From: Candidatus Omnitrophota bacterium
Lineage (GTDB): Bacteria; Omnitrophota; Gorgyraeia; Gygaellales; Profunditerraquicolaceae
Assembly (NCBI GenBank): GCA_028716245.1
Contig: JAQUQW010000001.1
Location: forward strand, 40,793-104,792
Reading direction: 5' to 3'
Length of the DNA stretch: 64,000 nucleotides
The notes below the pieces were generated by a model. That model saw only the letters and a program-made list of their open reading frames with translations, was not told the DNA's origin and ran no database searches. The translations under genes and the position numbers were made by a program. The stretch's first letter is position 1. Every line of letters begins with the position of its first letter. This document shows, one piece after another, positions 20,146-41,418 of the stretch.

Positions 20146-20708
20146 AGATCGGCATCCTCGGCGGGACTTTTAATCCGGTACATATCGGGCACTTGATTTT
20201 GGCCGAAGAAGCAAGAGAAAAGTTAGCGCTGGATAAAATTATCTTTATTCCCACGGCGCTGCCGCCGCATAAAGATAACGCGGGTATTGCCCCCGCGGAT
20301 GACCGCTTGAAAATGCTAAGAGCGGCGGTTAAAGGGAATAAGTTTTTTGCGGTTTCGGACATTGAAATCAGACGCCACGGGCGCTCTTATACAATCGATA
20401 CCTTAAAAGAATTAAAAAATAAATTTACCCGCGATGAGCTTTATTTTATTATCGGTTCTGATTTGCTTAAATATTTGAACGAGTGGAAGGATTTAAGTGA
20501 AATAATCAAAATGGTAAAATTTATCGCGGCTACCCGGCCCGGATATCCGCTTCAGCAGTTACCGCATTATATACAGACTTTGGCTATCCGGGCGGTAGAT
20601 GTTTCAGGTTTTGAGGTGCGCCAGTGTATTAAAGAAAATAAATCATTTAGATATCTGGTGCCGGATAAAGTTTTTGACTACATAAATAAAAGGAAGCTGT
20701 ATAAATGA
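20142..20708 (+). CDS. nadD: Nicotinate-nucleotide adenylyltransferase
   Basis: GILGGTFNPVHIGH, the (H/T)xGH nucleotidyltransferase motif. Confidence 0.85.
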   Translation: MKIGILGGTFNPVHIGHLILAEEAREKLALDKIIFIPTALPPHKDNAGIAPADDRLKMLRAAVKGNKFFAVSDIEIRRHGRSYTIDTLKELKNKFTRDELYFIIGSDLLKYLNEWKDLSEIIKMVKFIAATRPGYPLQQLPHYIQTLAIRAVDVSGFEVRQCIKENKSFRYLVPDKVFDYINKRKLYK

Positions 20709-21355
20709 AAATAAAGATTGCCCCGTCAATATTATCGGCGGATTTTACGCATCTTGCGCTTGAGCTTAAGAAAGTCGAGGAAGCGGGCGCGGATTTAATC
20801 CACGTTGATGTAATGGACGGCCACTTTGTACCGAATATTACTATCGGCCCGCAAGTCGTAAAATATTTACGCAAAGCAACCTCGTTACCTTTAGATGTGC
20901 ACTTAATGATTGAAAATCCCGCTAAATATGTGGATGCTTTTGTCAAGGCAGGAAGCGATATGATTACCGTGCATATTGAGACGGTTAGTTTGGGAGAATT
21001 ATCCGCTATTGCTAAAAAATTAAAAGCCAAAGGAGTAAAACTGGGGATTTCTTTAAATCCGGGCACGCCTTTAACTAAGATTAAAAAAGCTTTAACGCTG
21101 GTTGATTTTGTTTTGGTTATGTCGGTTAATCCCGGTTTTGGAGGACAAGCATTTATCCCGGGAGCAATAAATAAAATAAAACAGCTGCGGGCAATTTTTA
21201 AGAAGGATATCTCTGTTGACGGGGGAATCAATAATATTACCGCTAAACTTGTAAAGAATGCCGGGGCAAACGTTTTGGCAGCCGGTTCATATATTTTTGG
21301 GGCAAAGAATATAAAAAAAGCAGTTAACAGTTTAAGGAGAAATACCGATGAGTGA
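20705..21355 (+). CDS. rpe: Ribulose-phosphate 3-epimerase
   Basis: IAPSILSADF, HVDVMDGHFVPN and VMSVNPGFGGQ motifs. Confidence 0.9.
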   Translation: MKIKIAPSILSADFTHLALELKKVEEAGADLIHVDVMDGHFVPNITIGPQVVKYLRKATSLPLDVHLMIENPAKYVDAFVKAGSDMITVHIETVSLGELSAIAKKLKAKGVKLGISLNPGTPLTKIKKALTLVDFVLVMSVNPGFGGQAFIPGAINKIKQLRAIFKKDISVDGGINNITAKLVKNAGANVLAAGSYIFGAKNIKKAVNSLRRNTDE

Positions 21356-24908: not shown

Positions 24909-26074
24909 TGGATATAAACAAGCAGATAGAAATAATTAAAAGGGGCGCTGTAGAGATAATCTCTGAAGATGAGCTTCGTAAGAAGCTGGAGCAGAGCATA
25001 AAACTTAAGCGCCCCTTAAAAATTAAAGCCGGGTTTGATCCTACTGCCCCTGATTTGCACCTAGGCCACACTGTACTCTTAAGAAAACTGCGTCAATTTC
25101 AGGATTTGGGGCATGAAGTTTATTTTCTTATCGGTGATTTTACCGGCCAGATCGGCGATCCTAGCGGCCGCTCTGAAATTAGAAAACAACTCACCAAACA
25201 GGAGGTATCCAGGAATGCCCAAACCTATAAAAAGCAGGTGGCTAAAATTTTGGATATTGGTAAATTAAAGATCGTTTTTAACAGCAAATGGTTTGAAAAA
25301 ATGTCGGGGGTAGAGATGTTGCAGCTTACTACCCATGCTTCGGTTTCTCAGATGCTGGCGCGTGATGATTTCAAGAAGCGTTTTACAAACGGAGAAAATA
25401 TTTCGATTTTGGAGTTTGTTTATCCTTTAATGCAAGGGTATGATTCGGTCATGCTTGAGGCTGATGTGGAGATCGGAGGCACAGACCAGATATTTAACTT
25501 GCTGGTCGGCAGGGAATTTCAAAAAGATTTCAGCCAGCCGCAACAGGTGGTCCTGACTATGCCGCTTTTGGAAGGCACCGATGGCGTAGCTAAAATGAGC
25601 AAGTCCTACGGAAATTATATCGGCATCAATGAACCGGCAAGCGAGATCTTCGGTAAAATCATGTCAATCTCCGACGAGCTAATGCTTAAATATTACGAAT
25701 TGTTAACTGATGAAGAGTTGGTTAAAGTTAAACAGACGCATCCAAAAGAGGCAAAGGTAAATTTGGCCAAGATTATTATCACTCAATATCATTCTGCCGG
25801 GGCCGCGGAAAAAGAAGCGGAAGAATTTTCCCGCGTTTTTTCCCAGAAAGAAATTCCCCAAGATATGCCTGTTTTTAAAACTGACGGCAAAAAAAATATT
25901 CTTACTATCCTTACCGAAAGTAATTTAGCCGCCAGCGGCAACCAAGCGCGCAGGCTGATAAAACAGGGGGCAGTCAGCTTCAATAACGTAAAAATCGAAA
26001 AAGATGATTTTACCCCGATTGAAGCCGGCACCCTTAAGGCCGGTTCCCGCAGGTTCCTGAAAATTACTTTGTAG
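24908..26074 (+). CDS. tyrS: Tyrosine--tRNA ligase
   Basis: HLGH and KMSKS motifs. C-terminal S4-like domain. Confidence 0.9.
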
Positions 26075-26919
26075 ACAGTTTACGTAACCGCATATTCCCC
26101 AATCAGATCTATAAGAAATATTTCTCCGCAAAATAAATGTGGTTAGATTTTTCTACCTTCTGCGTCCATTATAACTGGAGGAGAGAGGACCATGCCATCA
26201 TATGCGCGTAAGCATCAATTGCAACAGTCATTAGTGTATCATGCGTTTAGCCGAAGCAGCGGACGCAAGGTGATTTTTCAAGAATCTAGGGACTTCGATC
26301 ATTTTAAGACCTTGCTTTGCGAGTATAGCAATAGGTTTGATTCAAAAATATATCATTGGGTCATTATGCCGAATCACTACCATCTTGTGGTTGAATTCGA
26401 ATGCCCTGAATTGATTTCGAAATTTATGGCAGGATTACATCGAGCGTATAGCCATTATTACCATAAGCAATATAACGCGGCGGGTTTTTTATGGCAAGGC
26501 AGATTTAAATTACAGCCGATACAAAAAGATTTATATTTGAAAAATTGCGGCAGATATGTGGAGAGAAATCCGGTGCGCGCGGGAATGGTTGCGGAGGCCT
26601 GCGAATATGCGCATAGCAGCGCGCGATTTTATTGTTTAGGACAAGAGGACGGAATAACGCGAGTTAGTCCCGATTTTGAAGACTTCGGAAAAGAGATTGT
26701 TGGGCGACAGGCAGCCTATAAAGAATTCTTGAGAGTTTTTGATAGTAAAGAGAATGTTTATTTCTCGAATATAGAGATCCCCCGTGGTGATCAGGATTTC
26801 CTACGCAGGCTGGTGAAGACAGGTATGCATTATTTTCCGAGAAGGCAAGGCAGGAAAGCCGCAATATTTGTTCCGTAACCATTTAACTTCAATAGAATTA
26901 CCTACACTGTCTATAATTC
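26069..26919 (+). mobile_element. Compact IS-like unit: an IS200-like Y1 transposase (RAYT) bounded by about 20 bp imperfect inverted repeats
   Basis: The left inverted repeat TTGTAGACAGTTTACGTAA (26069-26087) overlaps the tyrS stop. The right inverted repeat ATTACCTACACTGTCTATAATT is at 26897-26918. The reverse complement of the left repeat matches the right repeat at 16 of 19 positions. Both flanks recur around 34196-35544. Confidence 0.6.
26192..26878 (+). CDS. IS200-like / REP-associated tyrosine transposase (Y1 HUH, TnpA_REP-like)
   Basis: HUH motif HYHLVV. C-terminal NPVRAGMVAEACEYAHSSARFY matches the conserved Y1 transposase catalytic helix. 228 aa. Confidence 0.8.
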   Translation: MPSYARKHQLQQSLVYHAFSRSSGRKVIFQESRDFDHFKTLLCEYSNRFDSKIYHWVIMPNHYHLVVEFECPELISKFMAGLHRAYSHYYHKQYNAAGFLWQGRFKLQPIQKDLYLKNCGRYVERNPVRAGMVAEACEYAHSSARFYCLGQEDGITRVSPDFEDFGKEIVGRQAAYKEFLRVFDSKENVYFSNIEIPRGDQDFLRRLVKTGMHYFPRRQGRKAAIFVP

Positions 26920-26970
26920 TTAATTCTTTTACCTTTATTTTCCAGGGGTTTAGCGATATAATCATTAATT

Positions 26971-27234
26971 ATGCTTTGGATGATAATCGGCATTTGTGCC
27001 GCCACCCTAACCATGTTTTCTTTTATCCCCCAGATAGCCAGGTCTTTAAGGACCAAATCTGTCAAGGATGTAAGCCCGGTTACTTTATTTCAGCTTTCCG
27101 CGGGGGTTTTATTATGGATGATTTACGGAATTTACCGCAAAGACCCGATAATCATATCGGCAAACGCAGTAACTTTAGTAAGCTTATCGATATTAATATT
27201 TTTATATTTTAAATATGGGAGATTAGCCAAATGA
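26971..27234 (+). CDS. SemiSWEET / PQ-loop family small membrane sugar transporter
   Basis: 87 aa. Three TM helices with the PQ motif [10 protein letters not shown]. It ends where rmlA starts. Confidence 0.55.
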
Positions 27235-28097
27235 AAGGAATAATTTTAGCCGGAGGCAAAGCCACGCGCCTTTATCCGATCACTAAAGGCGTCTGCAAAC
27301 AGTTGCTGCCGATTTATGATAAACCGATGATTTATTATCCTTTGTCGGTATTGATGCTGGCTGGCATAAAAGATATCCTGGTGATTTCAACTCCAAAAGA
27401 CACCCCAAGATTCAAAGATTTGCTTGGCGATGGCCGCAACTTAGGGATCAAGCTTGCTTACGCGGCTCAACCTGAGCCAAAAGGAATCGCCCAGAGTTTT
27501 ATCATTGCCGAAGATTTTATCGGAGACGATAATGTGTGTCTTATTTTAGGCGATAATATATTTTACGGCCAAAACCTTACGGAATTGCTTCAAAAAACAG
27601 CTAAATTAAAAAAAGGGGCGGTAATTTTCGGTTATTATGTCAAGGATCCAGAGCGTTACGGCGTGCTTGAATTTGATAAAAAATGCAAGGTGACTTTAAT
27701 TGAAGAGAAGCCTAAAAAACCCAAGTCTAACTGGGCGGTGGCGGGTTTATATTTTTATGATAACAAGGTGGTAAAGATTGCCAAGAATATTAAACCTTCC
27801 GCAAGGGGAGAACTTGAGATCACCTCAGTAAATAACGAATACATTAAAAGAGGCAAGCTCAAGGCGGAATTTCTCGGCCGCGGCCACGCCTGGCTGGATA
27901 CCGGCACCTATGAATCGCTGATTGACGCGTCAGTTTTTATCAAGACAATCGAAGACAGGCAGGGATTAAAGATTGGTTGTATTGAAGAAGTGGCTTATCA
28001 CATGGGGTATATTAATAAAACGCAATTGCTAAAGCTCGCCGGCCAGACGCCAACCAGCTATGGGCAATACTTAAAGGATTTGCTCAAGAATGAATAA
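27231..28097 (+). CDS. rmlA: Glucose-1-phosphate thymidylyltransferase
   Basis: N-terminal [16 protein letters not shown]. Overall RmlA length. Confidence 0.9.
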
Positions 28098-28911
28098 AAA
28101 TATTTTGATTTTGGGAAAAGGATTTATCGGCCAAAGGCTGCAAAGAGAGCTTAACTGTGAAATTGACGGCTCGATGATAAATTGTTTTAGTGATGCGGAA
28201 AAACTGATAAAAAAATACAATCCAAAAATAATCATTAATTGCATCGGCTCGACCGGCAGGCGCAACGTGGATGACTGTGATCTGGATAAGGACGCGGCTT
28301 TGTTGGCAAATAGTTTTGTTCCGGTAATCTTGGCTGAGATATGCCTGCGTAACAGCATCAAGCTTGTGCATATAAGCAGCGGGTGTATTTTTAATTACGA
28401 TTATAAGAAAGATAAGCCGATTAAGGAGGAGAGTGAAGATTATTTTTTCAAGCTTTTTTACAGCAGGAGCAAGATTTACTCAGAGAGGGCTATTGAAGAG
28501 TTAGCGCGCGATTATGATATCCTGATTGCAAGAATTAGGATTCCGCTTATTAACGAAAAACATCCTAAGAATTTGTTAGATAAACTTTTAAAGTATAATA
28601 AGGTCATTAATATCCCTAATTCTGTTACTTATATCCCTGATTTTATCCGGGCAGTTAAACATTTGATAAAGATTGGCGCCCGGGGAGTTTATAATGTGGT
28701 AAATAAGGGTGGTTTACGTTATCCCGATCTTATGCGGGCATATCAAAAATATGTCCCATCGTATAAATTTAAGCTTATTCAAGTAAAGAGCCTTGGGTTG
28801 GTTAGGACCGATTTAATTTTATCTACAAACAAGCTTGAGAAATCCGGTTTTAAGGTTAGGAATATTAACTCAGTCTTAGAAGAATGCGTAAAAGAATACC
28901 TAAAATCTTAG
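28090..28911 (+). CDS. rmlD: dTDP-4-dehydrorhamnose reductase-like SDR
   Basis: Rossmann motif [13 protein letters not shown]. Position between rmlA and rmlB. Confidence 0.6.
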
Positions 28912-29915
28912 TTACCGGCGCCGCCGGCTTTATCGGCAGCGCATTTGTTAGATTATTATCGAAGGGACTGTCCCCGAAGGGGACTGTCCCTGAGGTTACT
29001 ATAATTGATAAACTCACTTATGCCGCAGACCTGAAGCGTCTCGAAGATATTGATAAAAGGGGACTGTCCCCGAAGGGGACTGTCCCCTTTTACAAAGCCG
29101 ATATTTGCAATAAAAAACAGATTGAAAGGATTTTTTTAAAAGAGAAACCGGATATCGTCGTCCATTTCGCCGCTGAAAGCCACGTCGACCGCAGCATTAA
29201 CGATGCTTCGCCGTTTATCGAAACTAACATTAAGGGCACGCAGGTTCTTATTGATGCCAGCCGCAAATACAATATAAAGCAATTTATTTTAATCTCGACT
29301 GACGAAATCTACGGAGAGATTGCCAATGGCAAGTTTAATGAGGATTCTCCGATTAAACCGAACAGCCCTTACGCGGCTTCTAAGGCCGCCGCGGATCTTT
29401 TAGTACAATCATATATCCGGACTTATAAGTTTCCCGCGATAATTATCCGTCCCTCAAATAATTACGGGCCATGGCAGTATCCGGAGAAGTTGATTCCACT
29501 GGCGATCTTAAGAATAATAGAGGGAGGTAAAGTTCCGCTTTATGGTAAGGGGCAAAATGTGCGTGAATGGCTCTATGTAGATGATTGCGCAAAAGGCATC
29601 CTGGCGATTATGGATAAAGGCGCAAGCGGGCAGATTTATAATTTAGGCAGCAGCCAGGAAAGCAGGAATATCGATACGGTAAAACTTTTATTGGAAACTT
29701 TGGGAGTCAGCCAGAAAAGATTTAAATTTGTTAAGGATCGCCTTGGCCACGATATAAGATATAGTTTGGATTCCAAAAAGCTTTACCAAAAGCTCGGCTG
29801 GGAACCCAGCGTTAAACTTGCGCAAGGCCTTAAGCTTACCGTGGACTGGTCGCTTAAGCATCAAGCTTGGCTTAGAAGTAAGCTAGGAGATATAAATAAA
29901 TTGTATAATAAATAG
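28884..29915 (+). CDS. rmlB: dTDP-glucose 4,6-dehydratase carrying two in-frame 10-codon palindromic repeat insertions
   Basis: [24 protein letters not shown] and the YAASKAA catalytic motif. Two surface-loop insertions GLSPKGTVP. The stop codon TAG is part of a REP-like palindrome. Confidence 0.85.
   Translation: MRKRIPKILVTGAAGFIGSAFVRLLSKGLSPKGTVPEVTIIDKLTYAADLKRLEDIDKRGLSPKGTVPFYKADICNKKQIERIFLKEKPDIVVHFAAESHVDRSINDASPFIETNIKGTQVLIDASRKYNIKQFILISTDEIYGEIANGKFNEDSPIKPNSPYAASKAAADLLVQSYIRTYKFPAIIIRPSNNYGPWQYPEKLIPLAILRIIEGGKVPLYGKGQNVREWLYVDDCAKGILAIMDKGASGQIYNLGSSQESRNIDTVKLLLETLGVSQKRFKFVKDRLGHDIRYSLDSKKLYQKLGWEPSVKLAQGLKLTVDWSLKHQAWLRSKLGDINKLYNK
28964..28990. repeat. In-frame tandem palindrome GGGACTGTCCCCGAAGGGGACTGTCCC (REP1 copy 1) inside rmlB
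   Basis: Two units of the GGGGAC-T-GTCCCC palindrome separated by GAA. It encodes GLSPKGTVP. Confidence 0.85.
29059..29087. repeat. REP1 copy 2 inside rmlB (GGGGACTGTCCCCGAAGGGGACTGTCCCC, flanked by AAAA and TTTT)
   Basis: Encodes RGLSPKGTVPF in frame. Confidence 0.85.
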
Positions 29916-29959
29916 GGACAGCGACCATTATTTTTGAAAAATAATGGTCGCTGTCCCTA
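29913..29959. repeat. REP-like palindrome copy 2. A 47 nt perfect palindrome TAGGGACAGCGACCATTATTTTT-G-AAAAATAATGGTCGCTGTCCCTA.
   Basis: Its leading TAG is the rmlB stop codon. It probably also acts as a terminator hairpin. Confidence 0.85.
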
Positions 29960-29975
29960 TTAAAAAAGGAGAGAT

Positions 29976-31034
29976 ATGCCGGTTGTTATAGTAACGGGTT
30001 CCTGCGGTTTAATCGGCTCTGAAACCGTCAGTTTCTTTGCCGAAAAAGGTTTTGATATCGTCGGTATCGATAATAATATGCGCAAAAGTTTTTTTGGCGC
30101 GGATGGCTCAATCCTTTGGAATAAACAGCGTCTCCAGAAACAACATAAAAACTACCGTCATTATCACGTGGATATCCGCGATCAAGGAAAAATAAATTCA
30201 ATATTCAAGAAATTCAATAAAGATATCGCTTTAATTGCGCACGCCGCGGCCCAGCCTTCCCATGATTGGGCGGCTAAAGATCCCATGGTTGATTTTGGGG
30301 TTAATGCTCAAGGCACGCTGGTTATGCTTGAGGCCCTGCGCAAATTCTCACCCCATGCGGTTTTTATCTTTACCTCAACGAATAAAGTCTACGGTGATAC
30401 TCCTAACCGCCTGCCCTTAATTGAAAAAGAAAAGCGTTTTGAAATAGCCGGCGGCCATAAATATTATAAGGGTATCGATGAAACCATGAGCATCGATAAT
30501 TGTTTACATTCAGTTTTTGGGGCATCTAAAGTTGCCGCGGATGTGATGGCCCAGGAATACGGAAAATATTTTCATTTAAAGACCGGCATATTTAGGGGAG
30601 GCTGCCTTACCGGCCCGGCGCATTCCGGAGCCGAACTGCATGGATTTTTGTCTTATTTAGTAAAATGCGCGGTAACAAAACGCACATATAAAATTTACGG
30701 TTACAAGGGTAAGCAGGTAAGGGACAATATTCATTCATTTGATTTGGTTAACGCGTTTTACCACTACTTCCAGAATCCCCGCTTGGGTGAGGTTTATAAT
30801 ATTGGAGGAGGCAGGTTTGCCAATGTGTCGGTTTTAGAAGCAATTGAGATTTGCGAAAAATTAACCGGGGAACAGTTTGAGTATGAGTATATTGATACCA
30901 ACCGTATCGGCGACCACATCTGGTGGATCAGCGATGTCTCTAAATTTAAATCACATTATCCGAACTGGAATTACAAGTTTGGTATCGAAGAAACAATCAA
31001 ACAAATTCACGATAATTATAGACAGTCTATGTAA
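29976..31034 (+). CDS. NAD-dependent epimerase/dehydratase (CDP-paratose 2-epimerase-like SDR)
   Basis: [13 protein letters not shown]ossmann motif. Catalytic YGASKVAAD. Confidence 0.7.
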
Positions 31035-31069
31035 TTCCATAAAAGATAACCAGTTACAAAACAAATATT

Positions 31070-32116
31070 GTGGAAAATATGAAGTATAATAATATTTTAA
31101 TCACCGGCGGCGCGGGGTTTATCGGCAGTAACCTGGCGGTATATTTTAAGCGCGAATATCCGCGGCTTAAAGTTTTTGTTTTGGATAACTTGGTCCGCCG
31201 GGGAAGCGAATTTAATTTACCGCGGCTTAAGGAAAACGGCGTTAAGTTTATCCGCGGTGATGCCCGGCGCCCCAAAGACCTGGATCTGGAATTTGATATA
31301 GATTTGATATTGGAATGTTCAGCCGAGCCGTCGGTATTGGCGGGTTATCAGAATCCATCTTATATTATTGATACCAACCTGATGGGCACGGTTAACTGCC
31401 TTGAGTTGTGCCGCAAGCGTAAAGCGGGGATGATTTTCCTTTCCACAAGCAGGGTTTATCCCTATGAAAAAATAAACGCGATCAAGCGCCTTGAATCAAA
31501 GAGCAGGTTTGAGTGGCCGCGTTTTAGCGGTATCGATACGGATTTTTCTTTAACCGGCCCAAAGACTTTGTATGGGGCGACTAAGCTGGCGTCGGAATTT
31601 ATCCTGCAAGAGTATATTGCCGCCTACGGGATCAAGGCGGTTGTGAACCGCTGCGGAGTGGTTGCCGGGCCATGGCAGTTTGGCAAGGTTGACCAGGGGG
31701 TATTTACCTATTGGATGCTGGCGCACTATTTTAAAAAGCCGCTTAAATATATCGGTTTTGGCGGGCAAGGCAAACAGGTGCGCGACCTTTTACATGTTGA
31801 TGACCTTTGCCGGCTAATTGGCATACAGGCAAACAGCCTTCCTAAGTTAAGCGGCAATACTTATAATGTCGGCGGCGCAAGAGAAATAAGCCTTTCTTTA
31901 TTGGAAACCACCGCGCTTTGCCGGCAGATTTCCGGTAATAACGTTAAAGTTGGCCACAACTTGCGTAACCGTCCGGGCGATATCGCCGTATACCTTACGG
32001 ATAACAAAAAAGTTACCCGGGAACTAAAATGGCAGCCGCAAAAACCGGCAATAACGATCCTGAATGATATTTTTAACTGGATCAGGAATAATGAGGCGAA
32101 GCTAAGAAAACTCTAA
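31070..32116 (+). CDS. NAD-dependent epimerase/dehydratase family protein
   Basis: ILITGGAGFIGSNL. YGATKLASE (YxxxK). Confidence 0.7.
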   Translation: MENMKYNNILITGGAGFIGSNLAVYFKREYPRLKVFVLDNLVRRGSEFNLPRLKENGVKFIRGDARRPKDLDLEFDIDLILECSAEPSVLAGYQNPSYIIDTNLMGTVNCLELCRKRKAGMIFLSTSRVYPYEKINAIKRLESKSRFEWPRFSGIDTDFSLTGPKTLYGATKLASEFILQEYIAAYGIKAVVNRCGVVAGPWQFGKVDQGVFTYWMLAHYFKKPLKYIGFGGQGKQVRDLLHVDDLCRLIGIQANSLPKLSGNTYNVGGAREISLSLLETTALCRQISGNNVKVGHNLRNRPGDIAVYLTDNKKVTRELKWQPQKPAITILNDIFNWIRNNEAKLRKL

Positions 32117-32166
32117 ATAAAAAAAATAGATCCGATCACGGTTGTTTTAGTAAATACATAATTAAC

Positions 32167-32194
32167 TTGACAAATCATATTTGTATTATATAAT
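32167..32194 (+). promoter_or_regulatory. Putative sigma70 promoter TTGACA-16 nt-TATAAT. It lies only 6 nt before the ATG, so the transcript may be leaderless.
   Basis: TTGACA at 32167-32172 and TATAAT at 32189-32194. The ORF start is at 32201. Confidence 0.4.
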
Positions 32195-32200
32195 TTTAGC

Positions 32201-33379
32201 ATGAAGTATTACAGGCGAAATATAGAAGGTGTCCTTAAGAAAGCCGCTCTCCAATTCCGCGTTTTAGTTTTGACCGGGATGCGCCAGACGGGAAAGTCTA
32301 CGCTTCTTGCGCATCTTTTCCAAAAGACGCACCGCTATGTTTCTTTAGATAATCCGCGCGATTTAAAGCTCGCCCAGGAGGATCCGGAGCTATTTTTTGA
32401 TGAGTATAAAGAGCCGTTAATCATAGACGAAATTCAATATGCCCCGCAGCTTCTGCCGTATATTAAGATAAGGGCGGATGAATCAGGGAGAAGAGGGCGG
32501 TTTATACTCACCGGTTCGCAGCAATTTACGATGATCCATAATCTCCGAGAGAGTTTGGCGGGTAGGGCGGCGATTTTTCATCTTTTGCCCATGGCTATTA
32601 CTGAGGCAAAAAGCGCCACGCAGAACTATTCTTTCCGCGGTATTAATGGTTCATATCCAGAGTTAATGTTAAGGCCAAACCATGATTCGCAGCGCTGGTT
32701 TGGATCTTATGTATCCACATATTTAGAGAAAGACGTGCAGCCTTTTTATCGGCTGGAGAAAATAACCCATTTCCGCGACCTGCTCTTTCTTTTAGCTGCC
32801 CGCTCATCCCAGGCCTTAAATTATCAGTCTCTTTCTAATGATTTGGGCGTATCGATTCAAGCGGTGAAATTATGGGTAAGCATCCTTGAAGTATCCCAGG
32901 TTATATTTCTGCTTAGGCCATATCATCTTAATTTAGGCAGCCGTATTGTAAAATCTCCAAAAGTATATTTTACCGACATCGGATTAGTAAATTATTTAAT
33001 CGGCAATAAATCAAAAATTGCTCTTACGCGCGGCGCGCAGGCAGGGGCTATTTTCGAGAATTTTGTGATCCAGGAACTATTAAAACATTATTTTAACCTC
33101 GGATTAACGCCGCCTCTTTACTATTACCGGACAAACAACGGGCTGGAAATAGATATAATTATTGAAGAAAAGGCGGGTGTGATTAGGCCTTGTGAGATCA
33201 AATTAACTAAAACGCCCAATTCCAGCATGATTAATTCGATAGAACGGTTGCGCAATCTGAGCAAAAGCAAAAAATTGTCTATACTAGACGGTTGTGTTAT
33301 CTCGCTTGTTGATAAATCTTTTCCTCTTACTAAAACTGCTAGGGCATATAATCTAAAAGAGTTCTTGTCGGTTATTTAA
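32201..33379 (+). CDS. AAA+ ATPase (AAA_14 / DUF4143-type)
   Basis: Walker A GMRQTGKST. Walker B LIIDEIQY. C-terminal DUF4143-like region. Confidence 0.7.
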   Translation: MKYYRRNIEGVLKKAALQFRVLVLTGMRQTGKSTLLAHLFQKTHRYVSLDNPRDLKLAQEDPELFFDEYKEPLIIDEIQYAPQLLPYIKIRADESGRRGRFILTGSQQFTMIHNLRESLAGRAAIFHLLPMAITEAKSATQNYSFRGINGSYPELMLRPNHDSQRWFGSYVSTYLEKDVQPFYRLEKITHFRDLLFLLAARSSQALNYQSLSNDLGVSIQAVKLWVSILEVSQVIFLLRPYHLNLGSRIVKSPKVYFTDIGLVNYLIGNKSKIALTRGAQAGAIFENFVIQELLKHYFNLGLTPPLYYYRTNNGLEIDIIIEEKAGVIRPCEIKLTKTPNSSMINSIERLRNLSKSKKLSILDGCVISLVDKSFPLTKTARAYNLKEFLSVI

Positions 33380-33419
33380 TAATCTCGTAATAGGAAAACA
33401 GATCCGGCCCCAATTTGAG

Positions 33420-34193
33420 ATGAAATCAATTAAGCCAAAGAATATCCTGCGTAAACGTTTTATCGCCGCTGAATCTGGCGCCCTGGTTATCGAAACCATC
33501 CAAACAATAGAAGAGGACACTCTGCGAAGCAGGGTGTCCTCTGGTACTAGATTGCGCGTGCTTAAACTCAAAGGTACCTGGCGCGCCAATGATTACAATG
33601 AACTTTGCTTTGAAGTTACCTTACGTAAAGGCCCGCCTGAAACCTACACCTTTAAAGGAAGCTGGAAACTAAACAAAAACCAACAAATAGAATACACATC
33701 CGAAGATGGCCGCGACACATTAACCTTCCAGGGTTATTGGAACATATCTTCGGCCAATCGCCTTGTTTATATGCTTGAAGGCAGCTCAACCTCGCGCTTT
33801 GAATTCAAGGTTCAGCTTGAATCGCCGACGCTTTATCCTAAAAAAGGAGAAATCCGCTATCGTATTGGCGTAGGTATCCGCCAAAGCCGCCTGAGCGCGC
33901 CCGGCCAGATAATTATTCTCTACGGTGAATGGAAGTTTGGCCGCGATTTAGAACTGACTTTTCAAATGGATTATGGCCAGGGTAAGGTCAGGGCAATAGA
34001 ATTTGGGGCAGAGGTAACCTTTGGCCGTGACAAAGTAATTTTGGCGCTTAAGAACGAGTTTGGCAAGCCTTTAGGTCTAACTCTTACCATGACCCATAGA
34101 TTCTTAGAGCACCTTGACGCCGAAGCCTTTGTAAGGCTAAAATCCCGCCAAAAAGAACAAGCAATCGAAGCCGGCATCACCATCCCTTTCTAA
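33420..34193 (+). CDS. Hypothetical beta-rich protein
   Basis: 257 aa ORF with internal repeated tri-/tetra-strand-like segments. No recognisable motif. Confidence 0.3.
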   Translation: MKSIKPKNILRKRFIAAESGALVIETIQTIEEDTLRSRVSSGTRLRVLKLKGTWRANDYNELCFEVTLRKGPPETYTFKGSWKLNKNQQIEYTSEDGRDTLTFQGYWNISSANRLVYMLEGSSTSRFEFKVQLESPTLYPKKGEIRYRIGVGIRQSRLSAPGQIIILYGEWKFGRDLELTFQMDYGQGKVRAIEFGAEVTFGRDKVILALKNEFGKPLGLTLTMTHRFLEHLDAEAFVRLKSRQKEQAIEAGITIPF

Positions 34194-34374
34194 TAACGTA
34201 GACAGTGTAGCTAAGATCTTGTAATGTAAAGAGATATAAAACAAATATTTTATATTCAAAGAATTTTTATTAGATTTTACGTCTTTCTACGTCCATTGAT
34301 AGTAGAAAGGAGAGCTTAAATGAGCAATAAACTTTGAGGTTTCATTCTGCAACCTCATGTTTTTACTGGGTAAA

Positions 34375-34432
34375 TAGGGACAGCGACCATTTTTTTCTTC
34401 TATGTGAACAAGAAAAATGGTCGCTGTCCCTA
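34375..34432. repeat. REP-like palindrome copy 3 (TAGGGACAGCGACCAT...ATGGTCGCTGTCCCTA), intergenic
   Basis: Same 14 nt arms as the copies at 5408 and 29913. Confidence 0.8.
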
Positions 34433-34485
34433 TTTAACATCATATCTCTTGACTTTTTTACCTTGTTTGTTAAAATATCCGTTCA

Positions 34486-34818
34486 ATGACTGAACAGCCC
34501 CAAAAAGAAGAAACTCTCTTTATTTTCAAAGAGTTAGAGGCCAACCCAAATACTACTCAACGGGATCTTTCCAGCCGCCCGAACATCTCCTTAGGTAGAA
34601 CTAACTATCTTCTCCGTGAACTCATTTTAAAGGGTTTCATCAAAGCCAAAAGCTTCACCGGTAACCCCGGGAAGCTAAGAAAAATGCATTATCTTCTAAC
34701 CGAGAAAGGCTTGGAAGAAAAATTCAGGCTTATTAAACATTTCCTGCAAATAAAAGAAGTAGAATACAATAAACTGAAACAGGAAAGTGATCTACTGATG
34801 AAAACTTATGGAGATTAA
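34486..34818 (+). CDS. MarR-family winged-helix regulator (EPS-associated type)
   Basis: 110 aa. The wHTH region is QRDLSSRPNISLGRTNYLLRELILKGFIK. It lies inside a polysaccharide locus. Confidence 0.55.
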   Translation: MTEQPQKEETLFIFKELEANPNTTQRDLSSRPNISLGRTNYLLRELILKGFIKAKSFTGNPGKLRKMHYLLTEKGLEEKFRLIKHFLQIKEVEYNKLKQESDLLMKTYGD

Positions 34819-34833
34819 CTATATTAGAAATCC

Positions 34834-35363
34834 ATGAAAAATAATAAAAATGTATATATAATTGCTGGCCCCAATGGTTCAGGAAAGACTACATTTGCGA
34901 ATAAATTTTTGCCTGATTATGCCGTATGCCAGAATTTTGTGAACGCCGATCTCATAGCTCAAGGGCTTTCGCCATTTTCTCCCCGCGTATTTGCTATAAA
35001 AGCTGGAAGAATTGTTTTGGAGCAGATCAATGGGTTTGCGGAAAGCGGGGTTGATTTCGGATTTGAGACTACGTTGTCAGGTAAATCATATGTCAATATC
35101 CTAATTCACAGCTTGCTATCGCGCGCATTAAGGAGAGAGTCTTAATGGGCGGCCACGATGTCCCCTCTAAGGATGTGCGTAGGCGTTTTACCAGGTCTAT
35201 GGTTAATTTGTTTAGATTGTATCAGCCGTTATTGGATTCTTGGATGATTTTTAATAACTCCGGCATTACTCCCGTTTTAATCGCGAAAAATGTGGATGGG
35301 AATTTAATTATTTCTGATGAGCAATCATTTAACAAGATTATAAAAATGGAGAATAAAAAATGA
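34834..35363 (+). pseudogene. Zeta-toxin-like / AAA-family P-loop kinase, disrupted by an internal deletion plus frameshift
   Basis: ORF 34834-35145 carries the P-loop GPNGSGKTT. ORF 35145-35363 carries the C-terminal GGHDVPSKDVRRRF motif. The C-terminal frame is open from about 35090 (..SQLAIARIKERVLMGGH..). About 20 residues expected between the two halves are missing. Confidence 0.55.
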
Positions 35364-35509
35364 AAAGGGAGATTACTATACAGGATAAGGCGGAGTTAGC
35401 TATGAAAAGCGCGATTCGCCAGGTTGTCCAGGAGCATAAAAAATCCGGGCGTCCTTTGGCCGTATGGAAAAACGGTAAAATGGTAAGGATATCGGCAAAT
35501 AAACTTTAA
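35360..35509 (+). CDS. Small hypothetical protein (49 aa), translationally coupled to the broken ATPase (ATGA overlap)
   Basis: ORF MKREITIQDKAELAMKSAIRQVVQEHKKSGRPLAVWKNGKMVRISANKL. It is below the ORF-track size cutoff. Confidence 0.25.
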   Translation: MKREITIQDKAELAMKSAIRQVVQEHKKSGRPLAVWKNGKMVRISANKL

Positions 35510-35516
35510 TTATAGA

Positions 35517-36236
35517 ATGAGATTACGTACACTGTCTATAATTATTATTCTTCTCTTGGCCACCACTCGCGGATTTTGCTATCCGGCCGACGTAGTCAGC
35601 CTCAACAACCGGGAGTATTTTCCGGCGGCGCAAAAAGCGATCGCGCAGGCAAAGAAATCTATATTTATAGTGATGTATTTAATCAGTTTCGACAAAGAAA
35701 ACAAAAGCTCAAAAGTTTTTCAATTAGTGGACGAACTGGTTAAAGCTAAGCTTAGGGGGGTGGAGGTTAAGGCTATTTTGGATTACCAGAGTAGCTCTAC
35801 TTTTCCCGCGGGCCAGGAAAATTATGCGGCATTTAAGTTTCTTAAGGATAAGGGAATTGATGCTTATTTTGACGGCGCGGTAGTTTACACCCACACTAAA
35901 GCCATGGTTATCGATAAGAGGATAGTTATTTCCGGAAGCCACAACTGGTCTGACGCCGCGCTTGAGAGGAACAACGAGACTTCATTTTTAATCGATTCAC
36001 CTGAATTAGCCAGCCGGCTTTTGGATGAATTTTCGCGGATCAAGCTCTCGAGGCCTGAATTAAAAGAAGGCGCGGTGGCTAGAATTCCATATTGGGCAAT
36101 GGAAAAAAACGGAATTATCCTGGATATGCTCCACCGGCACGATGAAAAGTGTCTTGATACCTGGCTTTTGCTCCTAAGGGATTTTGATGGCAATGCCGCT
36201 GGCCTGGTAAATACAAATTATGAAGTGCTGGCTTGA
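35517..36236 (+). CDS. Phospholipase D-family (HKD) protein with signal peptide, Nuc-like
   Basis: HKD motif HTKAMVIDKRIVISGSHNWS. N-terminal signal peptide. The first codons overlap the right-end repeat of the IS-like unit. Confidence 0.75.
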   Translation: MRLRTLSIIIILLLATTRGFCYPADVVSLNNREYFPAAQKAIAQAKKSIFIVMYLISFDKENKSSKVFQLVDELVKAKLRGVEVKAILDYQSSSTFPAGQENYAAFKFLKDKGIDAYFDGAVVYTHTKAMVIDKRIVISGSHNWSDAALERNNETSFLIDSPELASRLLDEFSRIKLSRPELKEGAVARIPYWAMEKNGIILDMLHRHDEKCLDTWLLLLRDFDGNAAGLVNTNYEVLA

Positions 36237-36969
36237 AGGTTTAGGGATGTTAAAGGATATAGATCATCCGTTTTACCGCAGGGATATAAACGCGCTACTT
36301 CGGCACTTAAATAAATTATACAAATTAGTTGAGATAGATACCCGGCTTAATCAGCCGATTAAAGTGAAGCTTTTAAGAAAAGTAGAAGGAGAAAATTTTA
36401 GCCTTCCTAGGGCCTATTGGGATTATGGCTGGGCAAATAGATTGGATCTGAATGCCAAGGCCTGCCTTTTGATTAATTTAGCCGAGCTGGGGCGTAATCC
36501 GCGGTCGCCGGAGTGGTCGCTCTCTCGCCCTCAGCTTATCGAAAAATATGGGGTAGGTATGAATTCGCTTTATCGGGGAATGAAGGCCTTAAGGGATTTT
36601 AATATCATTGATGTTAAGTGTAGCGAGATTGATGTGGGGTATGAGAGCAGGATGGCCTCCACAACCACTTTCCTGGGATTATATGATCCGCGCGAATTTG
36701 AGCAAAGCCTAAAACACCTTGAGGATACTCACGGTAGAGAATTAATAACCAAAAGCAGAAATTATGCTTTTGTGGTTTTTAAGGGATATGATTTAACCGT
36801 GATTGAGATGATCGCCGGTTTTATTAACACTTATGGGCCAGCTAAAGTGGATGAGGCTTTTAAGGTAGTTGCGAAGAAAAACCCGGATAATCCCAAAAGA
36901 TCATTCGGCTACGTAACCGGAATTTTAGGCAAGATGAAAGGTAAAGTATCGCATTCTTATGTTAAGTAA
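36220..36969 (+). CDS. Hypothetical protein
   Basis: 249 aa ORF overlapping the PLD gene end. Possible wHTH-like segment RPQLIEKYGVGMNSLYRGMKALRDFNIIDV. Confidence 0.3.
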   Translation: MKCWLEGLGMLKDIDHPFYRRDINALLRHLNKLYKLVEIDTRLNQPIKVKLLRKVEGENFSLPRAYWDYGWANRLDLNAKACLLINLAELGRNPRSPEWSLSRPQLIEKYGVGMNSLYRGMKALRDFNIIDVKCSEIDVGYESRMASTTTFLGLYDPREFEQSLKHLEDTHGRELITKSRNYAFVVFKGYDLTVIEMIAGFINTYGPAKVDEAFKVVAKKNPDNPKRSFGYVTGILGKMKGKVSHSYVK

Positions 36970-38997: not shown

Positions 38998-39916
38998 GTG
39001 TTTGGAATTGGATTATCCGGATTTTGAGATAATTATCCTTCCGGATAAAGCTTTCGCTAGGGGACTGTCCCCGAAGGGGGCTGTCCCCATAAAAGTAATT
39101 CCAACCGGTAATCTTAAGCCCGCTGACAAACGCGATATCGGTTCCAAACACGCCAAAGGTGAGATCATCGCCTTTATCGATGATGATGCTTATCCGGTTA
39201 AAGATTGGCTTAAATCTGCTATAGTAAATTTCTCAGATCCAGAAGTGGCCGCAGTCGGAGGCCCGGCAATAACCCCGCCGGATGATACCTTAAGCCAACA
39301 GGCAAGCGGCAAGATTTATTCATCACTTATGGTCAGTGGGAATTTTGTTTACCGCTATGTTCCTAAAGTAAAGAGGACAGTTGATGATTTGCCAAGCTGC
39401 AATTTTATTGTGCGTAAGGATGTAATTGAAGAACTGGGAGGTTTTAATACAAGCTTTTGGCCCGGAGAAGACACAAAGCTATGCCTTGATATTGCGCATA
39501 AGTTAGGCAAGAAGATTATCTATGATCCGGCTGTTCTGGTTTTTCATCATCGCCGCACAGTGTTTATGGCTCACTTGAAGCAAATCGCTAATTATGCTCT
39601 GCATCGGGGATATTTTGTTAAGAAATTTCCGGAGACATCCTTAAAACTATCATATTTTATCCCCAGTATATTTGTCGCAGGTTTAATCTTTGGTCCGGTT
39701 GTTGGATTATTGTCCTATCCGGCTAAGTTATTGTATCTTGTTTGTGCAGTTTTATATTTAACAATAGTTTTTATATCAAGCTTATCAGGGACTAGGGACT
39801 ATCCCCGAAGGGGACTGTCCCTAAGTTTTATGGTTTTCTCAGGTATTGTTCTCACGCATATTACTTATGGTATTTTTTTTATCAAAGGTTTGTTGGCTAG
39901 AGGGTTAAAAGAATGA
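38933..39916 (+). CDS. Glycosyltransferase family 2 with C-terminal TM helices, carrying two REP1 insertions
   Basis: GT-A DxD-like region IAFIDDDAY. Insertions GLSPKGAVP and a degenerate copy at 39788-39822. Confidence 0.7.
   Translation: MIVSIIIAVKTWQKNLEECVAKCLELDYPDFEIIILPDKAFARGLSPKGAVPIKVIPTGNLKPADKRDIGSKHAKGEIIAFIDDDAYPVKDWLKSAIVNFSDPEVAAVGGPAITPPDDTLSQQASGKIYSSLMVSGNFVYRYVPKVKRTVDDLPSCNFIVRKDVIEELGGFNTSFWPGEDTKLCLDIAHKLGKKIIYDPAVLVFHHRRTVFMAHLKQIANYALHRGYFVKKFPETSLKLSYFIPSIFVAGLIFGPVVGLLSYPAKLLYLVCAVLYLTIVFISSLSGTRDYPRRGLSLSFMVFSGIVLTHITYGIFFIKGLLARGLKE
39060..39088. repeat. REP1 copy 3 (GGGGACTGTCCCCGAAGGGGGCTGTCCCC) in frame in the GT2 gene
   Basis: Encodes RGLSPKGAVP. One substitution, A to G, relative to the consensus. 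Confidence 0.85.
39788..39822. repeat. Degenerate REP1 copy 4 (GGGACTAGGGACTATCCCCGAAGGGGACTGTCCC) in frame in the GT2 gene
   Basis: The first unit is disrupted and the second is intact. It encodes TRDYPRRGLSLS in frame. Confidence 0.7.
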
Positions 39917-41418
39917 TGAAAGTCATAATTTCTTATCCGCCATTAAGCAATGAAAAAGGTTGTCCTACTTTAGGCCAGAACCGGCAGTTCCAGTATTTTA
40001 AAGAGCCAACTCTGATTTATCCGGTTGTTCCGGCTACCGCGGCGACTATGCTTAAACAGGCAGGATATGATGTTATTTGGAACGATTGCCTGGCTAAGGG
40101 CTGGAGTTCTGCGCAGTTTCTTGATTTTATTCGTACAGAGCAGCCGGATGTTATTGTTTTTGAAACCAAAACCCCGGTTGTAAAAGAGCATTGGAAAATC
40201 ATTAATGACCTAAAGGAAAGCGCCAGGGGACTGTCCCCGCAGGGGACTGTCCCCGTGATCGTATTATTCGGCGACCACGTTACCGCCTTACCCGAAGAAT
40301 CTTTTCAGAATTCTCAGGTTGATTTTGTCATTACCGGTGGAGATTATGATTTTTTGCTTTTAAACTTATGTAATGTTCTTAAGCAAAGGGGACTGTCCCC
40401 GCAGGGGACTGTCCCCGACAGCGTTGAATTCGAGCCCGGTATATATTATCGAGAGAACGGCCAAATAAAGAATACCGGTAAATTTACTTTAAACCACAAT
40501 TTAGATAAAGTTCCTTTCATTGATCGTGTTCTGACATGTTGGCAGGATTATGCTTATAAGAATGGTAACTATAAGCGTATTCCCGGAACTTATATTATGA
40601 GCAGCCGTGATTGTTGGTGGGGAAAATGCACATTTTGCTCTTGGCCTACGCTTTATCCAAGCTTCCGCAGCCGGAGTGTTGAAAATGTCCTTAATGAAAT
40701 TGGGGAGCTTATTGAAAGGTATAATGTTCGGGAAATTATGGATGATAGCGGGTGTTTTCCGGCGGGAGAGTGGTTGCGTAATTTTTGTCAGGGCATGATT
40801 AGCCGCGGCTATAATAAAAAAATTTACTTTGGCTGTAATATGCGTTTTGGCGCACTAAGTGATGAAGATTATAGTCTTATGAAGCAGGCTAATTTTCGTC
40901 TGCTTTTATTCGGCCTTGAGTCAGCGAATCAAACAACATTAGACAGGATAAATAAGAACCTTAAGGTTGAGCGTATTGTGGAGGGATGTGAGGCAGCGAC
41001 TAAGGCCGGGCTTTACCCGCATATTACGGTTATGTTTGGTTATCCTTGGGAAAGTTATGAAGATGCGCTTAAAACATTACGGTTAGGCAGTTGGCTGCTT
41101 AAGAAGGGATACGCCTATACGATGCAGGCAACTATGGTAATTCCTTATCCGGGAACTCCATTATTTGAAGAATGCAAGAAAGAAGGATGGCTTAAGACTT
41201 TGGATTGGAATGATTATGATATGAAACAGCCGGTTATGCGCACTCCATTTGATGATGTTAAGGTGATGCAGCTTGTTCAGGGGATGTATAAGGTTTCCTA
41301 TCAGCCCGAATTTATCTTAAGAAAATTATTTTCCTTAAAAGATATTGATGATCTAAAGTATTGGTTACGCGCCGCCAGAAAGGTTTTCGGGCATATTGTT
41401 GATTTTAAGAAGGTTTAG
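39913..41418 (+). CDS. B12-binding domain radical SAM enzyme (class B) carrying two REP1 insertions
   Basis: CWWGKCTFCSW (CxxxCxxC). N-terminal B12-binding-like Rossmann region. Insertions GLSPQGTVP twice. Confidence 0.8.
   Translation: MMKVIISYPPLSNEKGCPTLGQNRQFQYFKEPTLIYPVVPATAATMLKQAGYDVIWNDCLAKGWSSAQFLDFIRTEQPDVIVFETKTPVVKEHWKIINDLKESARGLSPQGTVPVIVLFGDHVTALPEESFQNSQVDFVITGGDYDFLLLNLCNVLKQRGLSPQGTVPDSVEFEPGIYYRENGQIKNTGKFTLNHNLDKVPFIDRVLTCWQDYAYKNGNYKRIPGTYIMSSRDCWWGKCTFCSWPTLYPSFRSRSVENVLNEIGELIERYNVREIMDDSGCFPAGEWLRNFCQGMISRGYNKKIYFGCNMRFGALSDEDYSLMKQANFRLLLFGLESANQTTLDRINKNLKVERIVEGCEAATKAGLYPHITVMFGYPWESYEDALKTLRLGSWLLKKGYAYTMQATMVIPYPGTPLFEECKKEGWLKTLDWNDYDMKQPVMRTPFDDVKVMQLVQGMYKVSYQPEFILRKLFSLKDIDDLKYWLRAARKVFGHIVDFKKV
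40226..40254. repeat. REP1 copy 5 (GGGGACTGTCCCCGCAGGGGACTGTCCCC) in frame in the radical SAM gene
   Basis: The spacer is GCA instead of GAA. It encodes RGLSPQGTVP. Confidence 0.85.
40388..40416. repeat. REP1 copy 6 (GGGGACTGTCCCCGCAGGGGACTGTCCCC) in frame in the radical SAM gene
   Basis: Encodes RGLSPQGTVPD. Confidence 0.85.

Follow-up and report, generated by a model that had tools for sequence, protein, structure and literature searches.

We analysed a 64,000-nt stretch of contig JAQUQW010000001.1 from a Candidatus Omnitrophota bacterium (assembly GCA_028716245.1, positions 40,793 to 104,792 of the forward strand), hereafter called the window, and within it the block at 34196-35544. The block lies in a polysaccharide locus and is bracketed by two inverted copies of a repeat, named R here, which also flanks a homologue of the REP-associated tyrosine transposases (RAYT; REP, repetitive extragenic palindrome) elsewhere in the window. 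In the preliminary description, the block had been taken for a transposase-deleted or cargo-capturing derivative of the RAYT element, in which an extracellular polysaccharide (EPS)-type MarR regulator, a broken zeta-toxin-like ATPase and a 49-aa open reading frame (ORF) occupied the place of the transposase. The features described are all present in the sequence, with four corrections concerning the length of the repeat, the truncation of its right copy, the identity of the leader and an additional solo copy. As to the interpretation, the family kinship of the repeats and the leader with the ends of the RAYT gene stands, whereas the single-unit, cargo-bearing reading does not. The block is probably a mosaic of four or more pieces, each with a history of its own, and is bracketed by chance by two unrelated R copies.

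Related loci were collected by searching an exact 20-base pattern of R in one genome per species. The loci numbered with an L are 8-kb blocks holding this pattern, and per-genome copy numbers, as well as the single-copy status of RAYT, refer to such blocks (GW1_22 is L052, L043 and L063 together, and L095 is Ga0265297_10000751). Homologues of the block and of its proteins were searched in 95 related loci. The closest relative in hand, L018, is 87% identical to the window at the nucleotide level across 27232-34192. Since exact-sequence look-ups of the window's RAYT, MarR and TyrS proteins returned no record, the genomic context was taken from the pattern and protein scans.

The block and its repeats

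The features of the block, its borders and the RAYT element used as the reference are as follows.

26069-26916, + strand: RAYT element, composed of R (26069-26124), leader (26137-26194), RAYT gene (26192-26878) and inverted R (26859-26916, - strand)
31016-31073, + strand: solo R copy C, ~10 nt upstream of the epimerase start (31079)
34197-34251, + strand: R copy D, full-length (nhmmer E=1.4e-8, model positions 3-57; in-register pattern match)
34264-34321, + strand: leader copy (covariance model 46.3 bits, E=3.6e-9 over 641 kb)
34320-34337, + strand: 5-codon ORF (ATGAGCAATAAACTTTGA; MSNKL, then stop) opened by the leader ATG, as read from the sequence
34336-34364, + strand: small hairpin (GAGGTT..AACCTC, then ATGTTTTT), terminator-like by sequence and fold
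34371-34436, no strand: palindrome of a second repeat family, AATAGGGACAGCGACCATTTTT, with arms at 34371-34394 and 34413-34436 (24 bp, 100% complementary)
34449-34476, + strand: MarR promoter-like site (TTGACT-16-TAAAAT with upstream TG), aligned and conserved in L018 and L090 (TTGACT-16/17-TAnAAT)
34486-34818, + strand: MarR, EPS-type (TIGR04176 MarR_EPS, 91.3 bits, cutoff 88)
34834-35363, + strand: zeta-toxin-family ATPase, split into 103-aa and 72-aa ORFs
35360-35509, + strand: 49-aa ORF (p49), partner of the zeta ATPase and always directly downstream of it
35513-35541, - strand: R copy E, truncated (nhmmer match restricted to positions 2-30 of the 60 in the repeat model)
35517-36969, + strand: PLD-like gene plus p249 (DrmC/NucT-like domain; frameshift near 36234)

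With at most one mismatch, the core of the repeat, TAGACAGTGTA, matches five times in the window (26072+, 26903-, 31019+, 34199+ and 35528-), as compared to 0.43 expected matches, and none of 100 shuffled sequences reached five. When the ends are aligned from outer to inner side, they share TAGACAGTnTAyGTAA, a 28-nt spacer and AAATATT, the outer end being GTAG or ATAG. The pattern TAGACAGTnTAnnTAA-N28-AAATATT fits four of the five ends in register and without indels, and had no match in the shuffled sequences. The similarity is therefore not confined to the 11-mer core: conservation reaches across ~52 nt (52-55 nt), and not 21 nt, with a spacer of fixed length. A core match at 40940 was dropped, as it was not significant by the repeat hidden Markov model (HMM).

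The claim that the same inverted repeats lie at 34196-34216 and 35523-35544 holds in so far as both are true copies of the RAYT-end family. The left copy, D, is complete, with CGTAGACAGTGTAGCTAA at its outer and AACAAATATT at its inner end. The right copy, E, retains only the outer 26-29 nt (AATGAGATTACGTACACTGTCTATAA), its inner half being replaced by the end of the zeta-p49 module. The solo copy C is 80% complementary to the right end of the RAYT element across 60 nt. Given that R is shared at the same position upstream of the orthologous epimerase in L014, L015, L018, L021 and L082, this copy is old and not a recent insertion.

Two local readings of R were rejected. A promoter reading, with TAGACA as the -35 box, scores 11/12 at copy E, and by eye no comparable -10 hexamer occurs at that spacing in the other copies listed for comparison. 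For a hairpin within a single R (a GTAA..TTAC stem), the pairing equals the expectation from composition, with no covariation and a fold no better than that of shuffled sequences. In an Rfam scan of 25500-36500 (E up to 5), no match was obtained at R or the leader, and the only matches were generic hairpin ones at the two palindromes.

Histories of the pieces in related loci

In both L018 and L090, the stop codon of p257 is followed after 8-10 nt by the same MarR promoter and then by MarR, with no R and no palindrome. Because p257 directly precedes the MarR promoter in these two loci, 34194-34440 is a separate insertion of ~245 nt, and MarR is resident. MarR thus occurs at this site without the flanking repeats, an arrangement that the preliminary description had itself named as counter-evidence, and this, together with breakpoints that lie away from the repeats, contradicts a transposase-deleted or cargo-capturing element. 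At 34194 and 34440, no clear target-site duplication was found; TAAC is possibly present on both sides, which is too short to weigh, and Y1 elements in any case insert without one.

The left module is 79.5% identical to that of L025 and 73.8% to that of L004, both of which lie upstream of Bro-N genes, as compared to 63.5% to the RAYT end of the window. Similarly, the R part of copy D is 90-92% identical to the L025 and L011 copies, as compared to 65% to the left end of the window's own RAYT element. Being closer to the modules that precede Bro-N than to the RAYT end, the left module is not a derivative of the resident RAYT element. The ATG at 34320 indeed opens only five codons plus a stop, as had been described, and is an orphaned start with no gene behind it. 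The hairpin at 34336-34364 was not picked up by a strict terminator scan. The palindrome reported to follow the leader is present, with its arms fully complementary, and folds with -33.5 kcal/mol (z=-10.6). Copies of its family lie at 5405-5470, 29904-29964 and 34366-34437, and their arms pair almost perfectly. The L018 site corresponding to 29904-29964 holds an R copy instead of the palindrome.

The left piece would be an orphaned 5' module, made up of R and a promoter/leader hairpin, such as is found ahead of Bro-N, ORF6N and similar genes elsewhere. Its gene would have been lost except for five codons, and the promoter and leader may now run into these codons and two hairpins. The insertion is probably functionally inert at present.

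The identities proposed for the three genes of the block were borne out by the TIGR04176 match, the 55-nt deletion described below and the conserved partner of the ATPase. MarR probably still uses its own promoter at 34449-34476. The homology with L018 ends at 34785, inside the 3' end of MarR, where L018 continues into gmd. Relative to the intact 191-aa homologues in L075 and L095, the ATPase gene has lost 55 nt between 35099 and 35100 and is thereby broken; of these homologues, the L075 protein matches Pfam Zeta_toxin with 39.2 bits (cutoff 22.3). Its partner p49 has homologues in L075 (88% identical) and L088 (69%), as well as a 50-aa homologue in L095, and matched no family in the protein-family scans. 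In classical epsilon/zeta pairs, the antitoxin is located upstream of the toxin. In contrast, the partner in the window module sits downstream of the zeta gene and belongs to no matched family.

By homology with L075, the zeta-p49 module extends over ~34826-35516. It is intact between nadD and rpe in L075 (720-1448), with no R at its flanks, and is also intact in L095, upstream of p257. Zeta-p49 is an independent module, and its window copy is, as judged from the 55-nt deletion, predicted to be dead.

Beyond the module, the PLD-like gene and p249 form a single gene of 471-481 aa in L094 and L095, and the PLD domain resembles DISARM DrmC and NucT, under the cutoffs of these models. The PLD start codon (35517) is located inside the R stump, which encodes the first 8-9 codons of the gene (window 35517-35545; MRLRTLSII, where a signal-peptide-like N-terminus begins). 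The L095 PLD gene has its initial ATG just outside R, and the equivalent position of the window reads ATA. A full R of the same subtype as copy E lies immediately upstream of the L095 PLD gene, where it is part of the R-plus-leader head of a YhcG gene on the opposite strand, and R copies of this subtype also follow p257 in L063 and L064. By this comparison, the right repeat of the block is the stump of the R copy that sits upstream of PLD in L095. At a larger scale, the epimerase of L077 adjoins the flippase directly, and 32117-36950 of the window is therefore a variable insert region.

The repeat family, the gene arrangements and the empty sites are observed, as are the boundaries of the modules and the truncated repeat; from them we infer the following order of events. 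The left piece would have been inserted between p257 and the resident MarR, which kept its own promoter. The zeta/49-aa module would have landed downstream of MarR and later decayed through the 55-nt deletion, with its 3' end abutting and truncating an R copy that belongs upstream of PLD. We consider such a mosaic to be the probable origin of the block, and three kinds of observation weigh against it. The polarity of the left insertion depends on two relatives, and a deletion in both is formally possible. Other relatives show still other states after p257. Finally, L090 shows that units running from R and leader to an inverted R can exist with toxin-antitoxin (TA) cargo, and a decayed unit of this kind that came to straddle MarR by two events would be indistinguishable from coincidence.

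The R family, the RAYT homologue and the shared leader

The 20-base pattern retrieved 93 loci, 88 of which come from 28 assemblies, and the other five are lone chance matches. Of these 28 assemblies, 27 are labelled Candidatus Omnitrophota or Omnitrophica and one Planctomycetales. The repeat HMM detected 212 R copies in 656 kb. The midpoints of 206 of them (97%) fall outside ORFs of at least 70 aa, though such ORFs cover 90% of the DNA, and 60 of the 212 are arranged in tight inverted doublets. These doublets, 117-160 nt in length, give long hairpins when folded (z=-6.8 and -7.1), with pairing that includes even the variable central parts of the two arms.

The junction of nadD and rpe illustrates the behaviour of the doublets. 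In the window (20700-20710) and in WC90, the two genes overlap and no doublet is present, whereas the maps of five relatives show an R doublet at this site (listed are L052 3701-3861, L022, L085 and L046). The doublet begins with GTAGACAGT and ends with ACTGTCTAC, gives the flanking genes a new stop and a new start codon, and is accompanied by no target duplication in the four of the five doublet-bearing relatives that were aligned. The R doublet is a discrete insertion that some genomes carry and others lack. The inverted doublets would be the mobile form of R, and the single copies would be half-elements left at gene borders.

In the window, the TAG within the left R of the RAYT element serves as the stop codon of tyrS. 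The RAYT protein scores 58.8 bits with Pfam Y1_Tnp (cutoff 23) and 65.2 bits with NCBIfam REP_Tyr_transpos, as compared to 23.7 bits with the IS200 model (cutoff 55). The HUH motif (H62-Y63-H64), Y122 and W101-Q102..R104 can be read in its sequence. Homologues with 67-93% amino acid identity were found in 16 other assemblies, one per assembly in the sampled blocks, and the gene directly follows tyrS and is flanked by inverted R in the window and the mapped relatives. As far as the R-containing blocks indicate, RAYT would be a single-copy, vertically inherited Y1 (HUH) transposase homologue located after tyrS in many Omnitrophota. It probably moves R, and may do so by acting on single-stranded R DNA.

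Several points stand against this view of R and RAYT. The score of 65 bits is under the REP_Tyr_transpos cutoff of 80, and a sequence search of solved structures gave no match for RAYT. The single-copy status refers to R-containing blocks and not to whole genomes, and the action of RAYT on R is deduced from their association only. Moreover, R copies taken singly form no fold (z=+0.3 and +0.9), and covariation indicating a stem is absent from every pair of columns. Given this lack of a hairpin or covariation within a single copy, R is not a classical self-palindromic REP.

By its architecture, R-RAYT appears to be a REPIN-RAYT system. As a single R is long and lacks a palindrome, the system also comes close to the TIRtron variant. 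As in REPIN-RAYT systems (Bertels & Rainey 2011, PMC3116915; Nunvar 2010, PMC2817692), a syntenic Y1 homologue, single-copy in the sampled blocks, is flanked by inverted copies of an extragenic repeat, and this repeat is dispersed as hairpin-folding inverted doublets and as singles, with GTAG at the outer terminus. Doublets are likewise present or absent between genomes, with no target duplication. On the other hand, REPs are imperfectly palindromic and have a 5' GTAG foot, whereas a single R is not a palindrome, and R measures ~52 nt as compared to 20-40 nt for typical REPs. Other differences are the Omnitrophota host, the score of the protein below the NCBIfam RAYT cutoff, and the many R copies that carry a leader module and border TA or defence genes.

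With the TIRtrons (Di Nocera et al. 2013, PMC3733652), R-RAYT shares a Y1 gene with long terminal inverted repeats (~52 nt here), the 3' repeat of which overlaps the gene end, as well as a moderately abundant repeat family in the form of single, dimeric and grouped copies. The terminal inverted repeats of that study, which distinguishes four groups of the associated transposases (TIRYT), are unrelated to GTAG repeats. In contrast, the outer end of R carries GTAG, and W101, Q102 and R104 of RAYT make up the W-Q..R motif, which Quentin et al. tied to GTAG recognition. The IS200/IS605 elements and the gene-less PATEs and MITEs resemble the present system in the Y1 HUH fold (Pfam Y1_Tnp) and in the absence of target duplication. 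They differ from it in that the IS200 model scores far under its cutoff (23.7 bits vs 55), the gene is syntenic and single-copy in the sample instead of multi-copy, and the ends are inverted repeats of one family instead of distinct left and right subterminal hairpins. In the literature searched, no paper links a REPIN-RAYT-type system with Omnitrophota. R and RAYT thus appear to constitute a REPIN/RAYT-type system of this phylum, conserved in 28 assemblies and apparently undescribed.

The leader was modelled from 28 leaders. In this motif, an invariant GTTAGATT box is followed by a hairpin, the loop of which starts with CGTC (CGTC..TT) and the 3' arm of which holds a GGAGG ribosome-binding site immediately ahead of the ATG. 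With the covariance model, the RAYT leader at 26137-26194 reaches 66.2 bits. The copy at 34264-34321 has an GTTAGATT-like box, the stem CTTTCTAC/GTAGAAAG, the loop GTCCATTGATA and a GGAG ribosome-binding site in the 3' arm, and folds with an 8-bp stem (z=-2.05). It is accordingly a real member of the family, as its score indicates, although the identity between 34270-34318 and 26143-26191 is 68% (34 of 50 aligned columns) and not about 75% as had been stated.

Across 53 distinct leader copies, 77.7% of the cells are paired, as compared to 73.2% after shuffling, and double-change cells number 47 as compared to 20; none of 500 shuffles reached either value. The proposed hairpin register also beats every slid register. 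The family-wide pairing support for the leader hairpin is moderate: RNAalifold found no structure on the ungapped leader alignment, and the support emerged only after realignment with the covariance model.

The 44 significant leader copies (two in the window and 42 in L003-L092) include 17 upstream of RAYT, ~12 upstream of ORF6N and ~6 upstream of Bro-N genes. Further targets are one RhuM-Fic, one RadC and two YhcG genes (one of the latter seen in the L095 map), and several copies precede no gene. The leader is not specific to RAYT. It belongs to no Rfam family and is a candidate regulatory motif shared by RAYT and mobile-element-type genes, which may mask the ribosome-binding site. A leader hairpin masking the ribosome-binding site would recall the left end of IS200.

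A palindromic repeat of another kind, AGGGGACTGTCCCCGAAGGGGACTGTCCCC, is found at 28962-29007 and 29058-29103, with other copies near 39059, 39793, 40225 and 40387. The first two lie in frame inside the rmlB-like gene (28884-29915) and encode GLSPKGTVP twice; the second insert is missing from four relatives. In the rmlB-like gene, AGGGGACTGTCCCCGAAGGGGACTGTCCCC is an intragenic REP-like insertion that preserves the reading frame.

R at the seams of a toxin-antitoxin and defence island

In L095 (1-8600), nine R copies on one strand separate AbiEi/Eii, zeta-p49, p257, YhcG, PLD-p249 and DUF6036. Same-strand runs of R also occur in GW1_22, STD1_209 and KR13. The runs in L095 and GW1_22 comprise 6-9 copies, and ORF6N genes are separated there as well; a PADLOC candidate, the PDC-S01 ATPase, is likewise among the genes separated by R runs. 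In four genomes, the AbiE pair is followed by an R located 18-20 nt from its stop codon, while its neighbours differ. In L090, the stretch at 2157-3319 starts with a BrnT gene and its likely partner, which precede a RAYT-less unit (2731-3319) located beside RAYT. This unit is composed of R, leader, a 19-codon ORF, an XRE helix-turn-helix protein, a 20-nt remnant of the RAYT 3' end and an inverted R, and its 19-codon ORF looks like a truncated HigB/Gp49-type toxin. Judging from these arrangements, R marks the seams of a shuffled TA/defence island within the polysaccharide locus, and the mover may be RAYT or plain recombination.

Two further observations concern this island. A duplicated 3' fragment of p249 with its own R is found at 8223-8536 of L095. 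The AAA_14/DUF4143 ATPase of the window (32201-33379) is 99% identical to its L018 orthologue, as compared to ~87% for the surrounding DNA, and matches the PADLOC candidate defence family PDC-S01 (E=7e-101).

The role of R at the seams could go further. R, often with the leader hairpin, could be the junction site of a gene-cassette system run by the Y1 transposase homologue around tyrS-RAYT, in which TA and defence genes travel as "gene plus R" cassettes. Either RAYT itself or recombination between R copies would shuffle these cassettes at R sites close to the RAYT gene. Under this proposal, 34196-35544 would consist of an orphan cassette head, the resident MarR and a zeta-p49 cassette with its 3' R. 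The same-strand arrays of L095 and the three other genomes and the R retained by the AbiE pair agree with this proposal, as does the location of the L075 zeta-p49 module at the very nadD|rpe site where five relatives have an R doublet. We nevertheless regard it as unlikely, since the geometry is loose, the inner side of a single R facing a gene end 76 times and a gene start 55 times. R also lies between housekeeping genes, zeta-p49 lacks R flanks in L075, and homologous recombination, combined with the known preference of REPs for the 3' ends of genes, would look similar. A strict geometry of a gene with R at its 3' side was rejected, the bias of 76 vs 55 being mild only.

By way of analogy only, such a system would resemble integron cassettes, in that runs of small accessory or TA genes are separated by an imperfect repeat in the same orientation, near the gene of an enzyme with a tyrosine nucleophile at a fixed site. 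It differs from them in having no IntI-type recombinase, attI or attC, in its loose repeat geometry and in the R copies among housekeeping genes. If the cassette proposal were true, AbiE, zeta-p49, BrnTA, HigBA-like, ORF6N, Bro-N, RhuM-Fic, RadC, YhcG and PLD genes would be inserted, swapped and expressed as R-bounded cassettes, and RAYT and the cassette genes would be subject to a common translational control through the leader that they share. The system would be a functional analogue of the integron built on HUH chemistry, and the block would be a decayed stretch of such an array.

The original idea of one non-autonomous derivative of the RAYT element, with MarR/zeta/49-aa cargo in place of the transposase and mobilised by the resident RAYT, draws on the inverted R copies that bracket the block and on the RAYT-type leader just inside the left copy. 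It is also favoured by the comparable unit of L090 with its TA pair, and RAYT-less, R-bounded units with such cargo thus do exist elsewhere, but 34196-35544 is not one of them. We judge this idea improbable on several grounds. In L018 and L090, MarR and its promoter abut p257 without a repeat, and only 34194-34440 is missing. The homology breakpoints fall at 34785 and ~34826/35516, not at the repeats. With 26-29 of ~52 nt retained in the right repeat, the block does not have two complete matching ends, and its two inverted stretches share 15 matches in a 24-column alignment, or 59% in a full-length comparison. The left module belongs to the Bro-N-preceding sublineage and is only 63.5% identical to the RAYT end. 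In addition, no second copy of the block was found among the 95 related loci searched, and its right end has no RAYT 3' remnant, unlike the unit of L090.

It has also to be considered whether R is an operator, in which co-regulation of the polysaccharide locus is exerted by a transcription factor, for example the adjacent MarR, that binds the TAGAC-N-GTnTA near-palindrome. The near-palindromic core and the intergenic, promoter-proximal position of the copies in an EPS locus encoding MarR would suit such a site. This is very improbable in view of the conservation over ~52 nt with a fixed 28-nt spacer, the hairpin doublets of 117-160 nt, discrete elements that are either inserted between housekeeping genes or missing there, the R copies that flank RAYT downstream of tyrS across relatives, and the presence of R in blocks with no MarR homologue. 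That a site-specific invertase flips the 1.3-kb MarR segment as a polysaccharide phase switch, an idea suggested by inverted repeats around a regulator in a surface-polysaccharide locus and by the resemblance to the invertible promoters of Bacteroides capsule loci, is scarcely credible, since the right repeat is a stump, the inverted stretches share only the 15 matches in 24 columns, the segment is inverted in none of the relatives, the repeats are part of a dispersed family, and inspection of the N-termini of ORFs with 70 aa or more in 20001-42000, only some of which were scanned with Pfam, revealed no recombinase-like ORF.

With the mosaic as the probable origin of the block, 34196-35544 should not be annotated as a cargo-carrying transposon. 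The R repeats provide clear examples of a repeat marking the seams of a fast-changing TA/defence island in a polysaccharide locus, and the leader is a candidate 5' motif common to RAYT and a set of mobile-element-type genes. These findings may be of use for the annotation of metagenome-assembled genomes and offer a testable lead on the function of RAYT. The R-RAYT system would extend the partnerships of a domesticated transposase with its repeat to a poorly known phylum.

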